NCBI GenBank assembly: GCA_019694795.1
Contig: JAIBBF010000001.1
Coordinates: 262,265 to 326,264 of the forward strand
Length of the DNA stretch: 64,000 bases
DNA from: Flavobacteriales bacterium
GTDB lineage: Bacteria > Bacteroidota > Bacteroidia > Flavobacteriales_D > UBA2798
Reading direction: 5' to 3'
Shown: positions 937 to 53,624 of the stretch, one piece after another
Layout: the number at the start of each line of letters is the position of its first letter
How positions within the stretch are numbered: position 1 is the stretch's first letter
The notes under the pieces: generated by a model
What the model was told of the DNA's origin: nothing
Database searches by the model: none
What the model saw: the letters and a program-made list of their open reading frames with translations, nothing else
Made by a program: the position numbers and the translations under genes

Positions 937-3900
937 TTAGTCCATCAACACTACACGCTGAACCATTTTGTTCGAAGCGTTTTCTATAGTGATAAAATAA
1001 ACTCCACGTTCGAAGGTGCTTAAATCAATCGTTGTTTGAGTTCCATTTACAGATTTTGTTAATACAACTTGTCCAACTGCATTGATTGCACTTACATTGT
1101 ACTGACCAGCATTACTTAATGTAAGATTAAAGATTCCATTGGAAGGATTTGGATAAATTGAAACCTGAACAGTATTCAATTCGCTAACTCCAACCTGAGA
1201 ACCGATCGTTACTTGGGCATTTTCTGTACAGCCATTTGCATCCGTTACAATTACATCATAGGTTCCTGCAACTAATCCAGAAGGATCTTCGGTAGTAGAA
1301 GTAAATCCGTTTGGACCTGTCCAACTGTATCCATATGGTGCAGAACCACCGGTTACAATCAGGTTAACAGAACCATCATTTCCTTGCATTTCATCGAAAC
1401 CGATGGCAGTTGCTGCCATAACTGAAGGTTCATTTACGGTAACAATAGACGAAGCTGTACATCCATTATCATCTGTAATAGTTACTGTATAATCACCACC
1501 GTGAAGTCCATTTACATCTTCAGTTACAGAAGTGAAATTGTTTGGATCCACCCAGTTAAATGAATAAGGAGAAATTCCTCCTGTTACAGTAATATCAATT
1601 GAACCATTTTGATTTCCATTACATGTTACATTGGTAATTGCAGTTGAAATATCAATAGCATCCGGCTCTATAACATCTACATCAATCGTTGCGATACAGT
1701 TGTTGTTATCGGTAACTTCAAGTGTATATGATCCTGCGCTTACTCCTGAAATATCTTCAGTAGTGCTGCCGTTCACATCATTCCACAAATAAGTAGCAGA
1801 AGTTGCAGTTCCGTTAAGTACTACATCAATTTGAATATCTCCTGTTACATCACCATTACAATTTAAATTCAACACAGAGCTGGCATTTAAACTAACGGTC
1901 GGACCATTTGGATCTACAACAGAAAGTGAAGCTGTTCCGGTACATGAATTATCGTCGGTAACAGTTACTGTGTATGAACCTGCAGCCAGATCTGTTGGAT
2001 CTTCATTGCTTGAAGAATAGCTGCCACCATCAGTCCAACTAAATCCATAGTTAGCACTTACAGTACCACCATTAACAGTAATAGAAGCTGTACCGTCGTT
2101 TAATCCGCATACTGAAGGATCAGTAGTGAAATCTACGGTAACATCTATTGCAGAAGGTTCAAAAATAGTAACGCTTCCTGCATCTGCACATCCATTGGCA
2201 TCAGTAGCAAAACCAGAATAGGTACCTGCTGATAAACCTGATAAATCTTCCGAGTTGATAGTTCCGTCCCAAATTACAGTATATGGAGCTGTTCCACCGC
2301 TAATAGTAATATCGATGAATCCATCATTACCACCATTACATGAAACATCTCCTGTTACTACTCCTACAACTGCAAAATCATTCGTTACTGTAACATCAAA
2401 AGAAGATGTGGTAAAATTACCGGCATCATCCGTTGCTGTATAGGTTACAGTAGTAGTACCAACTGTAAATGCATCACCTGAAGCATAATCTGAAGTAATT
2501 ACTACAGTTCCTCCACATACATCACTTGCTGTAGGTTCTGTCCATGTAACAATTCCTGTACAACCATTATTATTAGCAGCAATGGTAACATCTGTTGGCA
2601 TAGATGCTAAAACAGGTGCTTCATTGTCTACAACAGTCACAGTAAATGATGAATTGGTTGTTTGTGAAGAAGCGTCGGTGTATGCATACGTAACGGTTGT
2701 TATCCCAACAGGGAATAAAGAACCTGAAGATAAACCTGCAGTTAATGTTCCTGATAAACCATTACCATCACAATCATCATTAAATGTAGGTGAAGTATAG
2801 TTCACAATTGCTCCACATGTAGAAGCATCAACGTTTACATTGATATTAGAGGTGGAAGTCGCAACTGTTGGAGCATTATCCTGTACAGTAACAGTTACTG
2901 TATTGGTCATCTCCAAATTGCATGAACAGTTTGATACACCGGTTTGCCATGCGATATTTTCATCAACATTGGTAAGGATACCTTCGTTTGCATTCACAGA
3001 ATGATCAGTTGCAGTTGTGCTTCCAGAAACCTGATTAAAGTTGTAATACAACAACAATCCCATTTCATTACCATTTACACAATTGCTCATGTTCGCCGAT
3101 ACTTCACTTGCTGATAAAGCGTAATTCCAGATTCTTAATTCATCCAGATTACCGCCAAAATTATCTGCTCCCCAACCCGTATTACCAACATGTACTACAC
3201 CTGATCCGTTGTAATCTCCCGATGCAATACGTGTTGCTGCCAATACGCCATCCATATACAGATTTTGTGTATTGGTAATTGCATCATAAGTGCCTACCCA
3301 ATGGTGCCAGTTTAAGTCGGTAATTGCAGCAGTGTTGATATCGTCAGCCCAAAATGCCATGGTAAACTCATTGCTTCCTCTGAATCCAAAATGCAATGCC
3401 TGGTCTGTACCAGGTGTACCTTGTGATACGATAAAATCATTTGTTCCAATTGAATTTCTTTTGGCCCAAACTTCAACAGAGAAAGATCTTCCTCCTATCG
3501 AAACCTGATCGGTAGTAATGATTTCATCATTTACACCATCCAATAAAATTCCATTCACATTGCTCTCCGCATAAACGTTATAAGTAGTGGTTGAAGATAA
3601 ATTTCCTGTAGAGAAAGTTAAGGCACTTCCCGTTCCGGTAGTTGGACCATCAACTACAGCATTAGTTGCATCGTTACGCAAATAATAGGTAACACCACTT
3701 TGTGATGAAGCGGTGGTAATTGTAGTTCCTGTATTTGGACAAACAATTGCAGCAGTTGCAGCAGTTGTTTGATTTGAAAGTGCATTTACAGTAAGTGTAG
3801 GAGTGCTTGTCATTTCAGCCGAACAAGAACCGCAAGTTCCGGAACCGCTAACCCAGTCTTGTGCCGGATTCATATTTGTAAGCGTTCCATTTGCTCCACC

Positions 3901-5328
3901 CAAAACATCAGTTAATGTGGTTGAGTTAACACCGTTTTCATATTTGTAATAAGCCACTAATCCTGTTTCTGTTCCAACAAGACATTTATACATAGCAGAG
4001 CGAATTTCAGATTGAGAACGAGCAACATTCCAAACACGCGTTTCATCCATTTGTCCGATTAATGGTTTATGTACACCAGGTACTCCGGCACCAATGGTTA
4101 GCGGACTGGTAGTAGTAAGAGGAACGCCTGTATAGGTAGTACTGGCCATTTCCACTCCGTCTAAATAAATTTTACAAATAGAACCGGAACGCGTAGCAGC
4201 GATGTGATGCCAACCTGAACCAGGAGTGATCACATTTGTTGTAGACAAATTCAAATCTGTTGTTCCATAGATTTGCCATAAAATAAATCCGGAAGGATTC
4301 AGCCAAAGTCCATAGTTACGATTAATAAAATCTCCTTTACCAACAAGGCGAACCCAATCAGAAGAAGTAGCATCCACTTTTACCCAGGTTTCTAATGTAA
4401 TATCACCTGTGATAGTTAATGGAGCGCTATTACCACAATCAACATAATCATCTACACCATCAAAATCCAAAGCACCGGAGGCAGATTGTGCATATACATT
4501 ATACGTAGTTGTTGTAGTGGTAACACCAGTATTTAAATCAATCGCCGCACCGGTTCCTGCAACAGGACCACCAATTACAGTATTGTCGGCATCGTTGCGC
4601 AAATAGTAGTTCATTCCGGCTTCAGATCCACCAAGGTGAACATCGGTTGAACCGGAACAAATCAGCGAACTTGAAATCAGGGACACTGATTGATTTGCTG
4701 CAGAAACAACATTTACCTGAATTAATTGACGTGGACCTTCACAACCACCGGCATCAAGCTGAGATACGCCATAATAGCGTGTACCCACTGCAGCAGTACT
4801 TGGTGTTGGAGCAGTTGTTGTATGTCCGGAACCATATTGATCCGTATACCAACGCAAAGAAGCACCTGTTCCATTTAAAGATGCCATTAATTGGGCAGCA
4901 GTTGCACCCTGGCAATAGGTATAACTAGTTATTGGTGTAGTTGGCAATGCAGGAGCAGATGCTGAGTTAGAAGTAACATGCAAGCTAGCATCTACCGTAT
5001 GCCATGTACCGGCATTGGAAGTCACCTGTAAACTGGTAATCGGAATATATGGTGTTAAATCTAAAGTAGTAGGGGTAGGAAATGAACCCAAATTCGTTCC
5101 GTTTACAATTACGGAGAAGTTTCCACTGCTCCATACAAAGCCGTTCCAAATTCCACAACTACCATCCAGACTAACCGATGTTTGGCAAGTTGACAAATAG
5201 TTAAAATTGACCGAGGCTGTAATTCCTCCATTTACACCTGTAGCTTCATGATAGTCTACAGTGTGTGTCTGAGCCGTCCCTAGCAAGTGGAAGGATGTGG
5301 CCCAAACCATCAGTAAAAGTTTTTTCAT
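937..5328 (-). CDS. Large T9SS-sorted cell-surface adhesin (2x LamG-like, 2x HYR-like, about 6x SprB-type repeats, C-terminal sorting domain)
   Basis: 1463-aa ORF with an N-terminal signal peptide (MKKLLLMVWATSFHLLGTAQ). Two LamG/concanavalin-like blocks end in DETRVWN and DELRIWN. Two HYR-like modules follow (CGAIVNY..., CTGIVTW...), then repeated units of the form CNG..DG.I...GG..PY..W. The C-terminus (IYPNPSNGIFNL...YFITIE...) is typical of a T9SS type A sorting domain. Confidence 0.8.
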   Translation of the reverse strand: MKKLLLMVWATSFHLLGTAQTHTVDYHEATGVNGGITASVNFNYLSTCQTSVSLDGSCGIWNGFVWSSGNFSVIVNGTNLGSFPTPTTLDLTPYIPITSLQVTSNAGTWHTVDASLHVTSNSASAPALPTTPITSYTYCQGATAAQLMASLNGTGASLRWYTDQYGSGHTTTAPTPSTAAVGTRYYGVSQLDAGGCEGPRQLIQVNVVSAANQSVSLISSSLICSGSTDVHLGGSEAGMNYYLRNDADNTVIGGPVAGTGAAIDLNTGVTTTTTTYNVYAQSASGALDFDGVDDYVDCGNSAPLTITGDITLETWVKVDATSSDWVRLVGKGDFINRNYGLWLNPSGFILWQIYGTTDLNLSTTNVITPGSGWHHIAATRSGSICKIYLDGVEMASTTYTGVPLTTTSPLTIGAGVPGVHKPLIGQMDETRVWNVARSQSEIRSAMYKCLVGTETGLVAYYKYENGVNSTTLTDVLGGANGTLTNMNPAQDWVSGSGTCGSCSAEMTSTPTLTVNALSNQTTAATAAIVCPNTGTTITTASSQSGVTYYLRNDATNAVVDGPTTGTGSALTFSTGNLSSTTTYNVYAESNVNGILLDGVNDEIITTDQVSIGGRSFSVEVWAKRNSIGTNDFIVSQGTPGTDQALHFGFRGSNEFTMAFWADDINTAAITDLNWHHWVGTYDAITNTQNLYMDGVLAATRIASGDYNGSGVVHVGNTGWGADNFGGNLDELRIWNYALSASEVSANMSNCVNGNEMGLLLYYNFNQVSGSTTATDHSVNANEGILTNVDENIAWQTGVSNCSCNLEMTNTVTVTVQDNAPTVATSTSNINVNVDASTCGAIVNYTSPTFNDDCDGNGLSGTLTAGLSSGSLFPVGITTVTYAYTDASSQTTNSSFTVTVVDNEAPVLASMPTDVTIAANNNGCTGIVTWTEPTASDVCGGTVVITSDYASGDAFTVGTTTVTYTATDDAGNFTTSSFDVTVTNDFAVVGVVTGDVSCNGGNDGFIDITISGGTAPYTVIWDGTINSEDLSGLSAGTYSGFATDANGCADAGSVTIFEPSAIDVTVDFTTDPSVCGLNDGTASITVNGGTVSANYGFSWTDGGSYSSSNEDPTDLAAGSYTVTVTDDNSCTGTASLSVVDPNGPTVSLNASSVLNLNCNGDVTGDIQIDVVLNGTATSATYLWNDVNGSTTEDISGVSAGSYTLEVTDNNNCIATIDVDVIEPDAIDISTAITNVTCNGNQNGSIDITVTGGISPYSFNWVDPNNFTSVTEDVNGLHGGDYTVTITDDNGCTASSIVTVNEPSVMAATAIGFDEMQGNDGSVNLIVTGGSAPYGYSWTGPNGFTSTTEDPSGLVAGTYDVIVTDANGCTENAQVTIGSQVGVSELNTVQVSIYPNPSNGIFNLTLSNAGQYNVSAINAVGQVVLTKSVNGTQTTIDLSTFERGVYFITIENASNKMVQRVVLMD

Positions 5329-5494
5329 AGATGTTATTTAGTTTAGGCCGAAAATAAATTTTTGAAAACAAACTAAATAAGAACGGAGACGCTATGACGT
5401 GAAATGCAAAACTTTGTATTTAAAATACACAATCGAATGCTTGAGGGGAAAGAAATGAACCGGACTTAAAAAAATAAATAACCTGCGTTTTGGA

Positions 5495-5863
5495 TTACCC
5501 TTCCAGGTGTTCAATATCCCATCCATTAAATAATTCATTCAGAAACTGGTTTTCCTCGACCGTAATTTTTTTATCGGCAATCACCATTTTAACTGCTTTA
5601 TTTAAAAAATCGATGCGTTCTTTCTCTGTAGAATCCTCATAAAAATCGCCCATTGCTTTCACAAAGTGATTGTAATATTCGTCTCTCGGTAATTTCGATA
5701 ATTCCTCTAATTCATTATCGAGGTTGACATTAAATGGGAAACTTTCACTGAGATAATCGACCATCATTAAACCTTCTTCGGGCGAAAACTCACCATCCGA
5801 ATTAGATATAATCATTAATATATGATAGCCGGCGATTACCTTGTTAAACTTTCTCGTTTTCAT
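5495..5863 (-). CDS. Small cytoplasmic protein, possibly TerB-like
   Basis: The ORF extends to 5905, but the likelier start is the Met at 5863 (MKTRKFNK...). The acidic helical protein weakly resembles TerB-type domains. No diagnostic motif was found. Confidence 0.4.
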   Translation of the reverse strand: MKTRKFNKVIAGYHILMIISNSDGEFSPEEGLMMVDYLSESFPFNVNLDNELEELSKLPRDEYYNHFVKAMGDFYEDSTEKERIDFLNKAVKMVIADKKITVEENQFLNELFNGWDIEHLEG

Positions 5864-6158: not shown

Positions 6159-6243
6159 GCCCGGGTGGTGAAATGGTAGACACGAGGGACTTAAAATCCC
6201 TTGGGCAGTAATGCCTGTGCGGGTTCAAGTCCCGCCCCGGGTA
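6159..6243 (+). tRNA. tRNA-Leu (anticodon TAA), class II with long variable arm
   Basis: Acceptor GCCCGGG/CCCGGGT (G1:U72 wobble), anticodon stem-loop AGGGA-CTTAAAA-TCCCT, long variable arm, T arm GCGGG-TTCAAGT-CCCGC. Confidence 0.9.
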
Positions 6244-6248
6244 CAAAA

Positions 6249-6588
6249 TCAGAGCGAGAATGAGAGCGAGAGCGAACATTCTGCTCTGATTTTCCTTCGT
6301 TCTGATTCTGATTCTCATTTCGTCCACCATTAAGTTTGAATTAATGTCCAAACCAAATGTATACAGCGAGAATGAGAGCGAGAGCGAACATTCTGCTCTG
6401 ATTTTCCTTCGTTCTGATTCTGATTCTCATTTCATCCAACATTAAGTTTGAATTAATGTCCCAAACGAAAGTATACAGCGAGAATGAGAGCGAGAGAGAA
6501 CATTCTGCTCTGATTTTCCTTCGTTCTGATTCTGATTCTCATTTCGTTCAATATTAATGTTTGAATTCCAAAATTTAGAAGTTTATAA
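6249..6588 (+). repeat. Tandem repeat, 112-bp unit x about 3, running from tRNA-Leu into the start of the four-helix-bundle gene
   Basis: The string agcgagaatgagagcgagag(c/a)gaacattctgctctgattttccttcgttctgattctgattctcattt begins at 6253, 6365 and 6477, giving a 112-bp period. Each unit holds an imperfect inverted repeat, at 6256-6316, 6368-6428 and 6480-6540. Confidence 0.85.
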
Positions 6589-6901
6589 AAAGGCTAAGGC
6601 ATTTCACTCCGAGTGCAGAAAGCTAATTAATACTAACAGGCTAGATAATTACGTGAAGGACCAATTAGGGAGAGCTTCATTCAGTATTCCCTTAAACATT
6701 GCCGAAGGGAGTGGGAAATTTTCAAAGGCAGACAGAAAAAGTTTCTTTGTCATTGCAAGGGCTTCTGTTTTTGAATGTGTAGCGGTTTTAGATATACTAA
6801 GTGATGAAGAAGTAATTTCAAAAGAATCATTTCAATCACTTGTTGAAAAGGCTGAAGAACTTTTCAAGATCCTATTTTCAATGATTAGGAACCTGAGTTA
6901 A
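6557..6901 (+). CDS. Four-helix-bundle protein (23S rRNA intervening-sequence protein / S23p / Avd-like family)
   Basis: 114 aa. The N-terminal FEFQNLEVYKKA, the central SIPLNIAEGSGKFSKADRKSFF.IARAS..E, and the length all match the family pattern (NIAEG...F..IA.GS..E). Confidence 0.85.
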   Translation: MFEFQNLEVYKKAKAFHSECRKLINTNRLDNYVKDQLGRASFSIPLNIAEGSGKFSKADRKSFFVIARASVFECVAVLDILSDEEVISKESFQSLVEKAEELFKILFSMIRNLS

Positions 6902-7504: not shown

Positions 7505-9736
7505 TTAATTGGCCATTTCACTCATGAACTTAATACGCATGAGCCGCAATTCCTCTTCAGAATATGCACCATCAAATTCATGGTAAGCATCCGTCAACGA
7601 ATCGGATTCTGCACTGCGGAAATAATCAAAAATTTCTTCCTGACAATCCTCATCCAGCACATCATCGATTACATAACTGATATTAATCCGGGTACCGGAA
7701 GCAACAATGCTTTCTATTTCGGCTACAACTTCATTCACGGATTTACCTAATGCTTTTCCAATGCTTTCCAATGAGAGTTTTCGGTCGACATTCTGTATAA
7801 TCTGAACTTTAGCGCCGGATTTATTGACTACGGATTTAATCACTAAATCTTGCGGACGATCAATGTTGTTTTCTTCGACGTATTTAGCAATCAAATCAAC
7901 AAATGGTTTACCAAATCGCTCGGCCTTTCCTGCTCCAACTCCGGTAATGTTGTTTAATTCTTTTACGGTTATCGGATATTGAACAGACATATCCTCCAAT
8001 GAAGGATCCTGAAAGACTACAAATGGCGGAACATTTTTTTGTTTCGCGATTGTCTTGCGTAAATCCTTTAGCATACTGAATAGATTTTCATCTACCGCAG
8101 TTCCACCGGATTTTCCGGAAATAATATCATCATCATCGTCACTGGAATCACCTTCGTAGTCGTGTTCCTTTAACACCATAAATGAAACCGGGTTTTCCAT
8201 AAAGGCCTTCCCTTTTTTGGTGATGTTTAAAACACCATAGGTTTCAATTTCTTTATTGATGTATCCTGCAACAATGGACTGACGAATTACGGCCGCCCAG
8301 AATTTATCGGAATGCTCTGCTCCTTTTCCAAAAACTTCAAGTTTATCGTGCTTGTAAGTGCGGATATCGCCCGTTAAATCGCCGGTTAAAATACTGATAA
8401 GGTGTTTTGCTTTATGTTTTTCTTTGGTCTCGGCAATTGAATCGAGAAGAATTAATAATTCATCTTTTCCTTCTGTTTTTTCACGTGGGTTCCTGCAGTT
8501 ATCACACATATCCCCGCAGCTTTTCTCTTCGAAGTGCTCACCGAAATAATAGAGGAGGTATTTTCTCCTGCACATGGAGGTTTCTGCAAACGAAACAATC
8601 TCATGCAATAATTGCTTGCCGATTTCAACTTCGGAAACATGTTTACCGTTGAGGAATTTTTCAAGTTTTTCAACGTCTTTATAACTATAAAAAGCAAGGC
8701 AATGTCCTTCCCCACCATCCCGGCCTGCACGACCCGTTTCCTGGTAATAGGATTCTAATGATTTTGGAATATCATGATGGATTACAAAACGGACATCCGG
8801 CTTGTCGATTCCCATTCCAAAGGCAATTGTGGCAACAATAACGTCAACATCCTCCATCAAAAACATATCCTGATGTTTTGCGCGGGTAGTTGCATCTAAT
8901 CCTGCATGGTATGCCAGTGCTTTTATTCCGTTGACCTTTAGAATTTCAGCTATTTCTTCAACTTTTTTCCTGGATAGGCAATAAACAATTCCTGATTTCC
9001 CCGACTTGGTTTTAATAAAGCGGATAATCTCTTTTACAACATCACGTTTAGGGCGAACTTCGTAAAACAAATTAGAACGGTTAAATGAGGCTTTATAAAC
9101 CGTAGCATCCATCATACCTAAATTCTTCTGGATATCCATTTGAACTTTAGGTGTAGCCGTTGCCGTTAATGCAATAATGGGTACATTTTCCCCTACCTGA
9201 TCAATCATTGGGCGTAGCTTGCGGTATTCGGGACGAAAATCATGTCCCCATTCCGAAATACAGTGCGCTTCGTCAATTGCAAAAAAGGAAACTTTAATGG
9301 TGGTGAGAAAATCTATATTTTCCTGCTTCGTGAGCGACTCCGGTGCAACATAAAGTAATTTTGTTTTACCGTCGAGAATATTCTTTTTTACTTTTTGTAT
9401 TTCTGCCTTGGTTAAGGAAGAATTTAAAAAATGTGCTACGCTATCATCTGAACCATAATTGCGAATGGAATCAACCTGATTCTTCATCAAAGCAATCAAA
9501 GGAGAAACAACAATAGCTGTTCCCTCCATCATCAATGCGGGCAACTGATAACAGAGCGATTTTCCACCTCCGGTTGGCATGATAACAAAAGTATGGTTGC
9601 CCGAAAGTAAATTATTGATAATAGCTTCCTGATGCCCCTTGAACTTATTAAAACCAAAAAATTTCTGTAGTGCGTCCTTCGGGGAAATCTCTAATGTCTC
9701 CATCTCTAAATCTAAAACTTTGTTCTTGTTTTTCAT
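7505..9736 (-). CDS. recQ: ATP-dependent DNA helicase RecQ
   Basis: 743 aa. Helicase motifs TGGGKSLCYQLPAL and DEAHCISEWGHDFRPEY, a zinc-binding cysteine cluster, and a C-terminal HRDC-like region. Confidence 0.92.
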   Translation of the reverse strand: MKNKNKVLDLEMETLEISPKDALQKFFGFNKFKGHQEAIINNLLSGNHTFVIMPTGGGKSLCYQLPALMMEGTAIVVSPLIALMKNQVDSIRNYGSDDSVAHFLNSSLTKAEIQKVKKNILDGKTKLLYVAPESLTKQENIDFLTTIKVSFFAIDEAHCISEWGHDFRPEYRKLRPMIDQVGENVPIIALTATATPKVQMDIQKNLGMMDATVYKASFNRSNLFYEVRPKRDVVKEIIRFIKTKSGKSGIVYCLSRKKVEEIAEILKVNGIKALAYHAGLDATTRAKHQDMFLMEDVDVIVATIAFGMGIDKPDVRFVIHHDIPKSLESYYQETGRAGRDGGEGHCLAFYSYKDVEKLEKFLNGKHVSEVEIGKQLLHEIVSFAETSMCRRKYLLYYFGEHFEEKSCGDMCDNCRNPREKTEGKDELLILLDSIAETKEKHKAKHLISILTGDLTGDIRTYKHDKLEVFGKGAEHSDKFWAAVIRQSIVAGYINKEIETYGVLNITKKGKAFMENPVSFMVLKEHDYEGDSSDDDDDIISGKSGGTAVDENLFSMLKDLRKTIAKQKNVPPFVVFQDPSLEDMSVQYPITVKELNNITGVGAGKAERFGKPFVDLIAKYVEENNIDRPQDLVIKSVVNKSGAKVQIIQNVDRKLSLESIGKALGKSVNEVVAEIESIVASGTRINISYVIDDVLDEDCQEEIFDYFRSAESDSLTDAYHEFDGAYSEEELRLMRIKFMSEMAN

Positions 9737-41564: not shown

Positions 41565-41708
41565 GCGTTAAAATAATTTCAAAATTGAGACCCCTAACCA
41601 GCCGGTCAGGGGTGCAAATAAAGCGAAAAGGAAAATTGAAAAAAAACACCTTGCCCCGCATTTTTTTTTAAACGTCTGATTTAGTGGATCTAAAAATATC
41701 CTGTCATT

Positions 41709-51133: not shown

Positions 51134-51931
51134 TTATTTTAATTTTTGCAGGAGTTTCTCGCATTCTTTGCGGGTCTTTTCATCATCTTTCGATTTAACC
51201 GGATATTCCATTACTTTATCTGCGAACTTTTTCGCATTGGCTTTTTGACCCATTTCGTAATAGGTCAATGCCAATTCATAAACATGCATCGAAAGCTTGG
51301 GTTCCAGTTTAATTGCCTTTGAAAACATATCTAATGCGTCTGCATAAGTTCCTCCTTTGGGTGTTCCACCGTAAAGTGTGTTAATCATAGTCCGTTCAAA
51401 TCCGTTTAATCCGGCGAAAGTCCGGTGCCATCTTCCCATAATGTGGAAGGCCGTTGCATTGTTTGGATCAATCTTAAATACCTGATCACATTCGGTCTTT
51501 ATTTCTTTTGCGTTCGAAATTTTGGTTTTAGTAGATGCATTTTCATTTTCCCTTGCAAGCGCCACTGCATAAGCAAGATGGGAATCGGCATAATTCGTAT
51601 TTAATTTAATGGCCAGTTTACCCAATCGCTTGGCTTCGGAATAATATTTTTTTTGTGTTTCACCAACCGACATTAATGCTCCTGCACGGCTATACGACAA
51701 ACTCATTCCGCAAATTATTTCCACGTTGAGTGAATCCTTCGCGTATAGCGTTTTATATGCAGAAAGAGCTTCTTCATGTTTACGCTCATCCTGAAGCTTT
51801 TTAGCCTGTTCTAAATTCATTTGAGCGCTGGATTGGGTAGATAATCCCAAAACAAACAATAAATAAACCAATGCTTTCATAACCATTTTTTTGAAAGGAA
51901 ATTTTTCAGTTAAACCCATAATCAACAACAA
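51134..51931 (-). CDS. Secreted TPR-repeat protein
   Basis: TPR-like helical repeats occur throughout. The likely true start is the Met at 51886 or 51880, just before the signal peptide (MKALVYLLFVLGLSTQSSAQ). Confidence 0.6.
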   Translation of the reverse strand: MLLIMGLTEKFPFKKMVMKALVYLLFVLGLSTQSSAQMNLEQAKKLQDERKHEEALSAYKTLYAKDSLNVEIICGMSLSYSRAGALMSVGETQKKYYSEAKRLGKLAIKLNTNYADSHLAYAVALARENENASTKTKISNAKEIKTECDQVFKIDPNNATAFHIMGRWHRTFAGLNGFERTMINTLYGGTPKGGTYADALDMFSKAIKLEPKLSMHVYELALTYYEMGQKANAKKFADKVMEYPVKSKDDEKTRKECEKLLQKLK

Positions 51932-52009
51932 AGTTCTTAAAACCGCATTTTAAATATTACTTTGATTCAAATGATTGTCCTTCAATTTACGAAAATGAAC
52001 TGAAAATAA

Positions 52010-52017
52010 TAACTTTG
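52010..52017 (+). promoter_or_regulatory. Candidate -7 box (TAACTTTG) for tRNA-Arg
   Basis: Matches TAnnTTTG and ends 10 nt before the tRNA 5' end. Confidence 0.4.
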
Positions 52018-52027
52018 TCAACCATTT

Positions 52028-52102
52028 GGCTCCGTAGTTTAATGGATAGAACGAGAGTTTCCGGAACTCTTGGTAGGGGTTCGATTCCCTTCGGGGCTAC
52101 CA
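52028..52102 (+). tRNA. tRNA-Arg (anticodon CCG), CCA encoded
   Basis: Acceptor GGCTCCG/CGGGGCT (two G:U pairs), anticodon stem-loop AGAGT-TTCCGGA-ACTCT, T arm AGGGG-TTCGATT-CCCTT, and a 3' ACCA. Confidence 0.88.
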
Positions 52103-52110
52103 TGAAGTAG

Positions 52111-52146
52111 AAAGGCTATGAGGATCCTCATAGCCTTTTTTATTTT
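52111..52146 (+). terminator. Intrinsic terminator after tRNA-Arg
   Basis: Perfect palindrome aaaggctatgagga/tcctcatagccttt is followed by a T-run. Confidence 0.8.
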
Positions 52147-52274
52147 TCCGGCCTTTCACTTCATGGTAGACCTCTTTAGACCGTCGTCTAAAGTTCAATT
52201 TGTATTAAGATGGGAATTGATTCTGTGTTTTATGAGGGATAGGTCCAGAATTTTTGCGAAATGTGGAGATCGTA

Positions 52275-52608
52275 CCCCTGAAGCAGATCCTCCTTCGTCA
52301 GATCGCTACAGGGCTATGAGGAGAAAAAATTCAGTTCTTACGTTTATTATTCTTCCCTGAAGCAGATCCTCCTTCGTCAGATCGCTACAGGGTGATGAAG
52401 CGAAAAAGTCCAAGGGTTACCTTGTAAAGGATGAAGATTGTTCCCCTGAAGCAGATGCTCATTCTTCGCATCGCTACAGGGTGATGAAGGGAAAAATTCA
52501 GTTCTTACGTTTATTATTCTTCCCTGAAGCAGATCCTCCTTCGTCGGATCGCTACAGGGCAATGAAGCGAAAAAGTCCAAGGGTTACCTTGGACTTTTTC
52601 TGCTTCAT
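52275..52608. repeat. Array of four 38-39 nt imperfect hairpin elements (R1-R4) with alternating A/B tails, equivalent to a roughly 167-bp unit x2
   Basis: R copies lie at 52275-52313, 52355-52392, 52443-52481 and 52522-52559, with consensus ccctgaagcagatcctccttcgtcagatcgctacaggg. The tails alternate: A (..aaaaattcagttcttacgtttattattctt) and B (..gaagcgaaaaagtccaagggttacctt..). The last B tail forms a long hairpin abutting tRNA-Met. Confidence 0.85.
52561..52608 (-). terminator. Long hairpin immediately 3' of tRNA-Met (bidirectional terminator-like)
   Basis: aatgaagc-g-aaaaagtccaagg-gtta-ccttggacttttt-c-t-gcttcatt has about 21 paired positions, with T5 following the core stem on either strand. 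Confidence 0.6.
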
Positions 52609-52683
<75 letters not shown>

Positions 52684-52698
52684 TCGTTTTTGAGAGTG

Positions 52699-52706
52699 CA
52701 AATATA
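52699..52706 (-). promoter_or_regulatory. Candidate -7 box (TATATTTG on minus strand) for tRNA-Met
   Basis: Matches TAnnTTTG and ends 15 nt upstream of the tRNA 5' end. Confidence 0.4.
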
Positions 52707-52719
52707 GTAATTAGTTTAA

Positions 52720-52727
52720 TACCTTTG
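52720..52727 (+). promoter_or_regulatory. Candidate -7 box (TACCTTTG) for era
   Basis: Matches TAnnTTTG, 15 nt upstream of the era ATG and divergent from the tRNA-Met promoter. Confidence 0.4.
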
Positions 52728-52742
52728 TAAAAATACTTTGAA

Positions 52743-53624
52743 ATGGCGCATAAAGCCGGATTTGTCAATATTATCGGAAGTCCCAATGTAGGGAAGTCAA
52801 CTCTCATGAATGCTCTTGTTGGTGAAAGGGTGTCAATTATTAACGCTAAAGCACAGACTACCAGGCATCGTATCATGGGTATAGTGAGTGGGGAGGATTT
52901 TCAGATTGTGTATTCAGACACCCCGGGTGTGCTGAATCCTGCGTATAAAATGCAGGAGGGGATGATGGGATTTGTAAACGCAGCATTTCAGGATGCGGAT
53001 ATTTTTATTCTGGTTACCGATTTAAATGAAGATCAACCCGCTGTACCGGATATCGTGGAGCGATTAAACAAACAAAGCGTTCCGGTATTTGTATTGGTGA
53101 ATAAAATAGATTTAAGTACACAGGAAAAAGTAGCGGAGCGATTGGATCATTGGAAAAGCCTACTCCCTAATGCATTGGTAGCAGGTATTTCCGCTTTACA
53201 CAAGTACAACCTGGATATTCTTTTTGAAAAAATCTTAGAATTATTACCGGAGAGTCCGGCGTATTTCGACAAAGAAGAATACACCGACAGATCCATGCGC
53301 TTTCTTGTGTCGGAAATTATCCGTGAAAAAATACTTACGTTATACGACAAGGAAATCCCCTATAGTTCTGAAGTTGTAGTAGAATCGTTTAAAGAGGAAG
53401 AGCATATTACACGAATCTCCGCCGTGGTTTACGTTACGCGCGATTCTCAAAAAGGAATAATTATTGGTCACCAAGGCAAAATGATAAAACTGCTTGGAAC
53501 CAAAGCAAGAAAAGAAATGGAAGAATTTCTCGGTAAAAAAGTTTTTTTGGAACTCTTTGTGAAAGTCCAGAAAAACTGGAGAGATGATGAGCGGCATTTA
53601 AAGAATTTCGGATATATTAACTAA
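52743..53624 (+). CDS. era: GTPase Era
   Basis: 293 aa with G1 [10 protein letters not shown]3 DTPG, G4 NKID and a C-terminal KH domain. Confidence 0.93.

Follow-up and report, generated by a model that had tools for sequence, protein, structure and literature searches.

What is a tandem row of four hairpins doing between two convergent tRNA genes, and does the paired base change that sets one of them apart testify to selection on a structured RNA? The question is raised by the metagenome-assembled genome of an uncultured Flavobacteriales, in which the genes for tRNA-Arg(CCG) and tRNA-Met(CAT) flank a spacer carrying, on the plus strand, four copies of a 38-nt hairpin element, henceforth R, that consists of CCCTGAAGCAGAT, 13 nt and ATCGCTACAGGG. 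Positions are those of the window, i.e. the whole 64-kb stretch of DNA that was analysed, position 1 being its first letter, and names of the type L021 designate the other contigs or loci with which it was compared. Our answer, held with moderate confidence, is that the array would be the decayed remnant of an amplified array of GIY-YIG nuclease cassettes that lay beside the initiator tRNA. As it now stands, the array itself is most likely inert debris.

The first-pass annotation of this DNA had reported four hairpin copies between convergent tRNA-Arg(CCG) and tRNA-Met genes, and the report was borne out: the copies begin at 52276, 52355, 52444 and 52522, and the two flanking tRNAs are recognized by ARAGORN as well as by Rfam. 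R1 and R2 have the same sequence, R4 departs from them by a single change, A25 to G, which adds a C:G pair, and R3 has five changes, all within the apical 13 nt, among which the closing C:G pair becomes G:C and a new C:G pair appears. These relationships had been correctly given, in a numbering that started at 52275, so that the pair then called C15:G27 is C14:G26 here. Equally right was the description of the stem (5 bp, an A.A mismatch, 3 bp, a bulged A, then 4–5 bp and a loop of 9–11 nt), into which every copy folds whichever strand is taken (–15.6 to –21 kcal/mol, z-scores –1.2 to –3.3). A tail does follow each R, with the consensus Y-D-ATGARGNGAAAAA and not the YR first proposed. The copies are separated by two kinds of segments, A and B, that alternate. 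The array cannot be ascribed to chance, since the R pattern allowing up to three mismatches gave three matches against none in 100 shuffles, and Tandem Repeats Finder returned a score of 545 (period 167, 1.9 copies, 90% matches). This period agrees with the earlier view that a unit of about 167 bp has been duplicated, but the units are unequal: A-R2-B and A-R4-B are 97% identical, whereas R1 and R3 with their flanks are 82% alike, so that the array is not the result of one recent duplication. Two convergent intrinsic terminators, found by a terminator scan, bracket the whole. Three other identities were considered and set aside. The open reading frames of 67–80 aa that cross the array are repeated translations of the hairpins; a CRISPR array does not fit, as the 'spacers' recur in the order A, B, A, B and B reproduces a tRNA terminator (cas genes were not searched for); and the similarities of R to tRNA fragments or to the N-terminal coding region of GIY-YIG genes are short and unconvincing.

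The origin of these pieces becomes apparent in relatives, whose era-proximal loci were retrieved through Era homologues. Genes for GIY-YIG nucleases occupy the orthologous era/tRNA spacer in L021, L022, L023, L024, L039 and L040, and there is none in the window. They code for stand-alone proteins of 85–110 aa and are readily recognized (PF01541, E about 1e-16) at L021 9343–9615 (called as 9302–9615), L022 1759–2031 and L024 9451–9708, and a partial tRNA copy comes after each of them. In L021 and L022 the nuclease gene comes after tRNA-Arg and its terminator and precedes the T-arm and acceptor end of a tRNA-Arg, in which a 40-nt double hairpin has been inserted exactly between GGGG and TTCGATTCCC; L022 harbours two extra tRNA-Arg copies with the same insert. 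The L024 gene is a different one (33% identical). Encoded on the tRNA-Met strand, it precedes the 3' two-thirds of tRNA-Met, where a palindrome replaces part of the anticodon/variable region. Here a 186-nt module is present twice, at 99% identity and 482 nt apart, once on each side of the nuclease gene, and it comprises a partial terminator, a flank, R, tail, a terminator and the start of the tRNA-Met 3' end. Far more distant genomes have homologues of the L024 nuclease at the same era/tRNA-fMet locus. L039 displays the order tRNA-Met, nuclease gene, partial tRNA-Met, second truncated nuclease gene. In L040 (JGI 3300056789, Ga0558720_00026), the Era protein of which is 65% identical to that of the window, 6.2 tandem units of 377 bp with 99% matches extend over 1029–3362, directly downstream of the initiator tRNA beside era, each composed of a terminator, an intact gene for an 86-aa GIY-YIG protein and a partial tRNA-fMet. 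After the last unit come an extended terminator palindrome and then a single copy of R (73 bits, 34/36 identical to R4 of the window), which carries an A-type flank and has perfect G:C and A:U pairs where the window has its A.A mismatch; 22 nt after this R begins a second, frameshifted GIY-YIG gene, GIY-B, closed off by a partial tRNA acceptor end with the trailer GGTCTACCATGAAGTAGAAAGGCC. Upstream of the GIY-B start, an in-frame CTG was considered as an alternative start and discarded, as it stands 2 nt after GGAGG, which is too close.

Cassette content thus differs among the window, L021/L022, L024, L031 and L040 between the same era and TPR-protein genes, and the flanking module is more conserved than the synonymous sites of era. 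The junctions of the cassettes fall in the T-loop of tRNA-Arg (L021, L022) or in the D-arm or anticodon/variable region of tRNA-fMet (L024, L039, L040). Small GIY-YIG genes with partial tRNA copies come and go at this hot spot, tandem amplification of the cassettes can occur, and duplication can extend to the R module. No description of chromosomal GIY-YIG cassettes linked to tRNA-fMet or tRNA-Arg was found in the literature searched, the coverage of which was incomplete.

Several features of these displaced tRNA copies deserve to be recorded in their own right. The extra tRNA-Arg(CCG) copies (L022 1389–1747; L021 9016–9103 and 9616–9680) bear in the T-loop the 40-nt double hairpin, TCCAGACGCTTCGTTCTGGATGCCGACCGAAGCGTCGGCA, the two loops of which are mutually complementary, and ARAGORN still calls them, as 88-nt tRNAs. 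In every displaced tRNA-fMet copy (L024 9390–9450; L040 1378–1441 and its repeats; L039 2780–2830 and 3259–3323) the anticodon-stem/variable region, ACCCGAAGGT, is replaced by a palindrome made of CCCTTCCG, a loop and CGGAAGGG; the loop differs in each genome, and the palindrome looks like an inverted duplication of adjacent sequence. This replacement could make the displaced tRNA-fMet copy immune to the nuclease. Short-read contigs of the Logan collection that contain era of this clade (L001–L008, L025–L027, L030, L032–L035) all break inside tRNA-Met, mostly in the anticodon/variable region, as expected if the 3' part of the tRNA is repeated in those populations.

With these cassettes in mind, the spacer of the window can be taken apart. 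The tRNA-Arg(CCG) gene (52028–52102, plus strand; Rfam tRNA, 62 bits) encodes its CCA and is followed, at 52103–52147, by the trailer TGAAGTAGAAAGG and an intrinsic terminator hairpin (52109–52140, inverted repeat I3 as well as terminator scan) with its T-run. On the minus strand, 52148–52172 (GGTCTACCATGAAGTGAAAGGCCGG) forms inverted repeat I2 with the tRNA-Arg 3' end and appears to be the relic of a partial tRNA acceptor end and trailer. Decayed spacer occupies 52173–52275, with a small hairpin at 52174–52193 and, at 52264–52275, the native X-type 5' flank of R1, to which the homology with relatives' spacers is limited. R1 (52276–52313, covariance model 83.4 bits) is followed by tail 1 (52314–52329, CTATGAGGAGAAAAAA), in which alignment recognizes the left arm of the tRNA-Met terminator palindrome in degenerate form, and by the first A segment (52330–52354). 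R2 (52355–52392), found by pattern search and covariance model, precedes a stretch (52393–52443) composed of tail 2, of B (52402–52424), which reproduces part of the tRNA-Met terminator inside the array, and of an X-type flank (52425–52443); this stretch contains inverted repeat I1 and is terminator-like on the minus strand. Then come R3 (52444–52481, 81.8 bits), tail 3 with the second A segment (52482–52521) and R4 (52522–52559, 90.9 bits), the four R and both A segments being on the plus strand. R4 is the copy at the orthologous position, beside the tRNA-Met terminator, in a 235-nt block that is 84–88% identical to L022, L024 and L031. The row closes with an extended palindrome around a bidirectional intrinsic terminator (52560–52610, inverted repeats I4 and I6), the right arm of which is the tRNA-Met 3' trailer. 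A terminal hairpin of about 21 paired positions touching the CCA end of tRNA-Met had been noticed before; it is present, with 23 pairs, and its arms co-vary between L021 and L031. The tRNA-Met(CAT) gene itself (52609–52683, minus strand), 100% identical in L021, L024 and L031, has three G:C pairs adjoining the anticodon loop and a non-standard 1:72 pair, consistent with its being the initiator, which it probably is.

Read along the tRNA-Met strand, the order is tRNA-fMet, the trailer/terminator/tail palindrome, R4', A', tail, R3', X', partial terminator B, tail, R2', A', tail, R1', then some 100 nt of decayed sequence, GGTCTACCATGAAGTGAAAGGCC and the terminator shared with tRNA-Arg. Three junctions in this succession carry our reading. 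At the first, the GGTCTACCATGAAGTGAAAGGCC element (52172–52150, against L040 3837–3860) shares 23 of 24 positions with the end of the GIY-B cassette in L040. At the second, the partial terminator B stops at the same hairpin position as the partial terminators of L024 (9243–9262 and 9725–9744), and recombination between two terminators flanking a nuclease unit, with loss of that unit, would leave just such a remnant. The third concerns the R flanks, which alternate in the window between two kinds, X (shared with L021, L031 and L024) and A (shared with L040). Each A' is composed, on the minus strand, of the first 12 nt or so of an L040-type nuclease-gene leader (AAGAATAATAAA) fused to the last 12 nt or so before the tail (AACTGAATTTTT, compared with AACAGGCTTTTT in L040); the flank of R2 and R4, TTTATTATTCTT, matches the L040 flank TATTTATTATTT, and the other half of A aligns with L040 3374–3385. 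The A segments would thus be scars left by deletion of a nuclease gene between two R modules.

The tRNA-Arg side also resembles a cassette end. The last 26 nt of tRNA-Arg with the trailer/terminator block (52077–52146) are 72% identical over 75 nt to L040 3815–3889, the 3' end of the GIY-B cassette. At 52100–52116 the window tRNA-Arg has an encoded CCA and a trailer matching that cassette end, where its counterparts in relatives (L024 9008–9020, L022 1744–1756) have no encoded CCA and a different trailer, CTAAGCTTTC; this difference suggests a replacement of the tRNA-Arg 3' flank in the window.

The scenario that we propose is as follows. The array would consist of four copies of one module of about 65 nt, made of the outer arm of the terminator palindrome (the 'tail'), R and a short leader, and in related Flavobacteriales this module bounds the stand-alone GIY-YIG cassettes that are lodged in the 3' flanks of tRNA-fMet and tRNA-Arg next to era. 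Nuclease-induced breaks in or near the tRNA genes, repaired by recombination between repeated tRNA and terminator segments, would amplify the cassettes, as experiments have established for phage SegB, and later deletions between the same repeats would remove nuclease genes and partial tRNAs. The window would display the end state of this process: no nuclease gene, four boundary modules, a recombinant internal terminator B, and A segments as fusion scars.

How does R itself behave outside the window? The comparison comprised eight sequences from five R-bearing lineages, and the covariance model was built from eight copies. In three lineages with Era about 84% identical (L021/L022/L023, L031 and L024), a single R lies at the same place and in the same orientation, beside the tRNA-Met terminator; R is therefore conserved in the orthologous spacers of relatives and not confined to the window. 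In these lineages R is identical to the window copies at 33–35 of 38 positions, while the four-fold sites of era are saturated, with 27–33% identity, and R is thus far better conserved than neutral DNA. With its tail, it is about 90% conserved across lineages with saturated synonymous sites and in L040. The presence of R follows the host tree poorly: it is found at Era identities of 100, 84, 84, 84 and 65% and is missing at 74–76% (L028, L029 and L037, in which tRNA-Arg is co-oriented behind tRNA-Met). Missing at intermediate distance yet present at 65%, R has a patchy distribution, as would be the case if it travelled with the cassette module.

Does this conservation bear on the structure? 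The paired change in R3 had been taken as a compensatory change arguing for selection on structure; the change is real, but such selection is not established by it. Among the eight sequences, changes on both sides affect two of the 14 pairs: a G:C that became A:U in L021, with the A.C of L031 and L024 as the intermediate, and the C:G that became G:C in R3; five pairs depart by mismatch alone. The covariation term of RNAalifold, +0.41, is slightly unfavourable, and in a shuffle control 22 of 500 replicates reached the observed percentage of paired positions, with too few independent sequences. Evidence for selection on the structure of R is thus weak. What R conserves is, to judge from this alignment, its sequence, and above all the loop CCTCCTT(C/T)GTC, its best-conserved part and almost invariant in the five lineages. 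Paired changes can also be produced without any selection by DNA template switching in quasi-palindromes. At this very locus, between L021 9820–9872 and L031 175–228 (Era 98% identical), the tRNA-Met trailer and the arm complementary to it have diverged by substitutions that match throughout, ATGAAGC/GCTTCAT against ACAAAAC/GTTTTGT, so that palindrome arms co-evolve quickly here.

The position of R suggests a role. R always comes after the terminator palindrome on the tRNA-Met strand, 22–29 nt upstream of the GIY-B start in L040 or of the TTATGCAT start remnant in L021 and L031, and its loop reads on that strand as a conserved purine-rich GACGAAGGAGG. We consider, with less confidence than we place in our reading of the array, that R is probably a cis-acting leader stem-loop of a read-through nuclease transcript, limiting or stabilising the expression of a toxic nuclease. 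In the window, R has no gene left to act on. More tentatively, a broader proposal may be entertained: R may be a working part of a selfish family of which we found no description, either as a regulatory leader or antisense hairpin or as a DNA hairpin recognized by the nuclease, the family being that of minimal GIY-YIG cassettes homing into the tRNA-Met and tRNA-Arg 3' flanks of Bacteroidota, with replacement tRNA fragments and tandem expansion, of which the window would keep four R copies after loss of the nuclease.

To be fair, a number of facts weigh against this construction. The amplified unit of L040 lacks R, which is therefore not needed for amplification. R is well conserved in four lineages with no adjacent nuclease gene, which fits a host-level, nuclease-independent function as well as it fits a recent turnover of cassettes, and the R-bearing lineages examined amount to five. 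The stand-alone GIY-YIG proteins have no DNA-binding domain, and their site specificity is putative. Searched by tblastn, the window spacer yielded no GIY-YIG coding remnant, so that the deletions are read from homology at the junctions. Finally, the GGAGG-like loop of R lies about 35 nt from the start codon, too far for an ordinary ribosome-binding site.

Some of the same observations would be accommodated if R acted as a DNA-level structure, i.e. a hairpin or cruciform that is the substrate or the product of minimal Slx1-like GIY-YIG nucleases, breaks at this place seeding the duplications. The cassettes are crowded with palindromes, namely the 23-pair terminator, R, the hairpins of CCCTTCCG and CGGAAGGG in L024, L040 and L039, and the 40-nt double hairpin in the tRNA-Arg T-loop; and prokaryotic stand-alone GIY-YIG proteins have been described as a minimal Slx1-like form (PMC1564403). 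G:U pairs do not designate a transcribed strand, one wobble pair favouring each of the two, as expected for a DNA hairpin, and the fully matched arm changes between L021 and L031 are explicable by template switching. The loop, however, is the most conserved part of R, which recognition of structure alone does not predict; R exists in alleles with and without a nuclease gene and is missing from the amplified unit of L040; and recognition of hairpins by these particular proteins is putative. On balance this account seems unlikely to us.

One might also see R as the stem-loop of a small or cis-acting RNA maintained by the host, for example an RNA of about 100 nt on the plus strand, ending at the bidirectional terminator and antisense to the nuclease leader, of which the four copies would constitute a multi-hairpin version. 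A hairpin with a U-run is always found on the plus strand within 10–40 nt after R, the loop CCUCCUU(C/U)GUC varies hardly at all in the five lineages, the conservation of R is far above that of neutral sites, and two base pairs have changed on both sides. Yet no Rfam family matches R, the covariation is not significant, and the intermediate relatives L028, L029 and L037 do without it. Reading the sequences upstream of R revealed no conserved TAnnTTTG box that would mark a plus-strand promoter: the weak candidates of L021 and L031 are the reverse complement of the start-codon remnant and nothing similar is present in L040; a sigma-70 scan is uninformative for this phylum. We regard such an RNA as distinctly unlikely.

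A further possibility is that neutral spacer was simply duplicated in tandem not long ago, through slippage between the hairpins or an unequal cross-over there, with neither cassette link nor function. This would account for the identity of R1 and R2, for the 97% identity of the two A-R-B units and for the existence of tandem arrays behind tRNA genes elsewhere in the window and in L029. It does not account for the conservation of R and its tail, about 90%, across saturated lineages and as far as Era 65%, for junctions that match the cassette boundaries of L024 and L040, or for units R1 and R3 that are 82% alike, and we hold it to be improbable. Least credible of all is that R be a repetitive extragenic palindrome (REP) or bacterial interspersed mosaic element (BIME) moved by a RAYT (IS200/IS605-type Y1) transposase whose gene lies elsewhere in the genome, as had been suggested by an imperfect palindrome with mismatch and bulge and a stem with CTAC, hence GTAG on the minus strand, because that tetranucleotide, specific to the window copies, gives way to CTTT in L021 and to CTTC in L031, L024 and L040, because neither the 64-kb window nor some 190 kb of related loci yielded a second locus or dispersed copy and genome and metagenome scans stay at chance level with nothing from a multi-copy genome, and because a tblastn search of the window with an approximate IS200 TnpA query, of low sensitivity, gave no significant match to a Y1 transposase.

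Searches for further copies can be summarized briefly. The covariance model recovered the known copies and no others in the window and 15 loci (220,579 bases) and in five more loci (32,643 bases); a weak match at 41579–41632 of the window is a small hairpin unrelated to R, and a fuzzy pattern search of the 64 kb revealed no R elsewhere. Rfam 15 recognized tRNAs only, both in 51500–53200 at E up to 10 and in the window and five loci at the gathering threshold. Scanning 185,579 species genomes for exact CCTGAAGCAG-N12-20-TCGCTACAGG gave 8 matches, none multi-copy, against about 10 expected by chance (an estimate), and a metagenome-collection scan for exact CCCTGAAGCAG-N12-20-CGCTACAGGG gave 4 against about 4 (again an estimate). 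Viral contigs scanned with R or trailer patterns produced chance matches in coding regions of unrelated contigs, or none; the array had no blastn match among plasmids; with the nuclease as query, tblastn of phages gave distant GIY-YIG matches only; and NCBIfam shows for the nucleases only a sub-threshold similarity to a group I intron endonuclease family.

Three of the exact-pattern matches are real hairpins, which we take for look-alikes of R. These hairpins, at L012 3100–3172, L018 2604–2638 and L017 325–360, have the exact lower stem of R (CCCTGAAGCAG and CGCTACAGGG, with the A.A mismatch and the bulged A) and different upper stems, in contexts such as the space between rplW and rplB or the region downstream of a pair of open reading frames resembling, by eye, a toxin-antitoxin operon. 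We do not count them in the R family, curious though their shared imperfections are: the matches are about as numerous as chance would give, these three score 20–30 bits, their contexts are unrelated, and no tRNA or GIY-YIG gene is near.

Arrays of other kinds are found behind tRNA genes in this group. The only other tandem array of the 64-kb window (6253–6567; 112-nt unit, 2.8 copies, 95% matches) directly follows tRNA-Leu(TAA) (6159–6244), and its unit is made of a terminator-like hairpin and a 5' fragment of the next gene (6557–6901), which codes for a 23S rRNA-intervening-sequence protein (PF05635, E = 1.4e-24). In L029 (Era 76%) tandem repeats of about 120 nt, with no R, lie between tRNA-Met and tRNA-Arg (5460–5830 and 5270–5370), accompanied by several incomplete tRNA-Arg 3' ends, of which one carries an inserted hairpin. 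This lineage seems prone to arrays that decay on the distal side of tRNA genes.

What does all this imply? For annotators, a hairpin array near a tRNA gene, even one in which a change looks 'compensatory', is not necessarily a structured RNA or a REP family. Such an array can be what homing-endonuclease cassettes have left behind, and the paired changes of a palindrome can originate at the level of DNA. If our reading of the array as a cassette relic is true, tRNA-targeted GIY-YIG cleavage and segmental amplification of the SegB kind would also take place in bacterial chromosomes, at an essential initiator tRNA locus and with much smaller nucleases. A hairpin with an invariant GAAGGAGG/CCUCCUU loop would then be a candidate for control of the cassette, which is of note in a phylum that largely avoids Shine-Dalgarno pairing. 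Both the cassette system and its conserved hairpin merit a proper survey.

It remains to place this locus among known systems. The closest in behaviour is SegB, the free-standing GIY-YIG homing endonuclease of the tRNA cluster of phages T4/T6, which recognizes the T-psi-C motif of tRNA (PMC2330249) and the breaks of which drive recombination-dependent segmental amplification of tRNA loci, in arrays that collapse under relaxed selection (PMC13096335). Here too, GIY-YIG genes sit among tRNA genes, the cassette junction of L021/L022 falls in the T-loop of tRNA-Arg, and amplification followed by collapse matches the 6.2-copy array of L040 and the relic of the window. In contrast with SegB, the locus belongs to a bacterial chromosome and not to a phage, the proteins are catalytic domains of 85–110 aa without the DNA-binding region of SegB, are not detectably closer to it than any other GIY-YIG protein is and have putative nuclease and homing activities, each unit carries a partial tRNA copy, and the R module has no SegB counterpart. 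Membership cannot be claimed, as a nuclease gene is missing from the window, the relatives' proteins consist of the catalytic domain only and cleavage is putative.

Other systems resemble the locus in part. Distal to tyrT of Escherichia coli lie repeats of 178 bp, associated with rtT RNA. They share with the present case a tandem array directly downstream of a tRNA gene, units with pieces akin to the tRNA 3' end or trailer, and a presumed origin by unequal recombination, whereas the units here are built on a conserved hairpin and terminator arms, stand between convergent tRNAs and are linked to nuclease genes in relatives. REP and BIME elements are likewise short imperfect intergenic palindromes, with a GTAG-like tetranucleotide such as the window genome has; R, by contrast, is a single-locus element with an unconserved tetranucleotide, tied to one orthologous position and to GIY-YIG cassettes. 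In T-even-like phages, hairpins or terminators precede free-standing homing endonuclease genes (mobE, I-TevI), the hairpin sequestering the ribosome-binding site. There as here, a stem-loop separates a highly expressed host gene from a potentially toxic endonuclease gene that depends on read-through; the GGAGG-like loop of R, however, is some 35 nt away from the start, in a phylum that rarely uses Shine-Dalgarno pairing. Lastly, the Ripley model of template-switch mutagenesis in quasi-palindromes generates matched arm changes with no selection on RNA structure, and it fits the C:G to G:C change of R3, the G:C to A:T change of L021 and the trailer/tail changes of L021; it is a mutational mechanism rather than a family of elements, and it leaves the conservation of the loop to be explained by other means.

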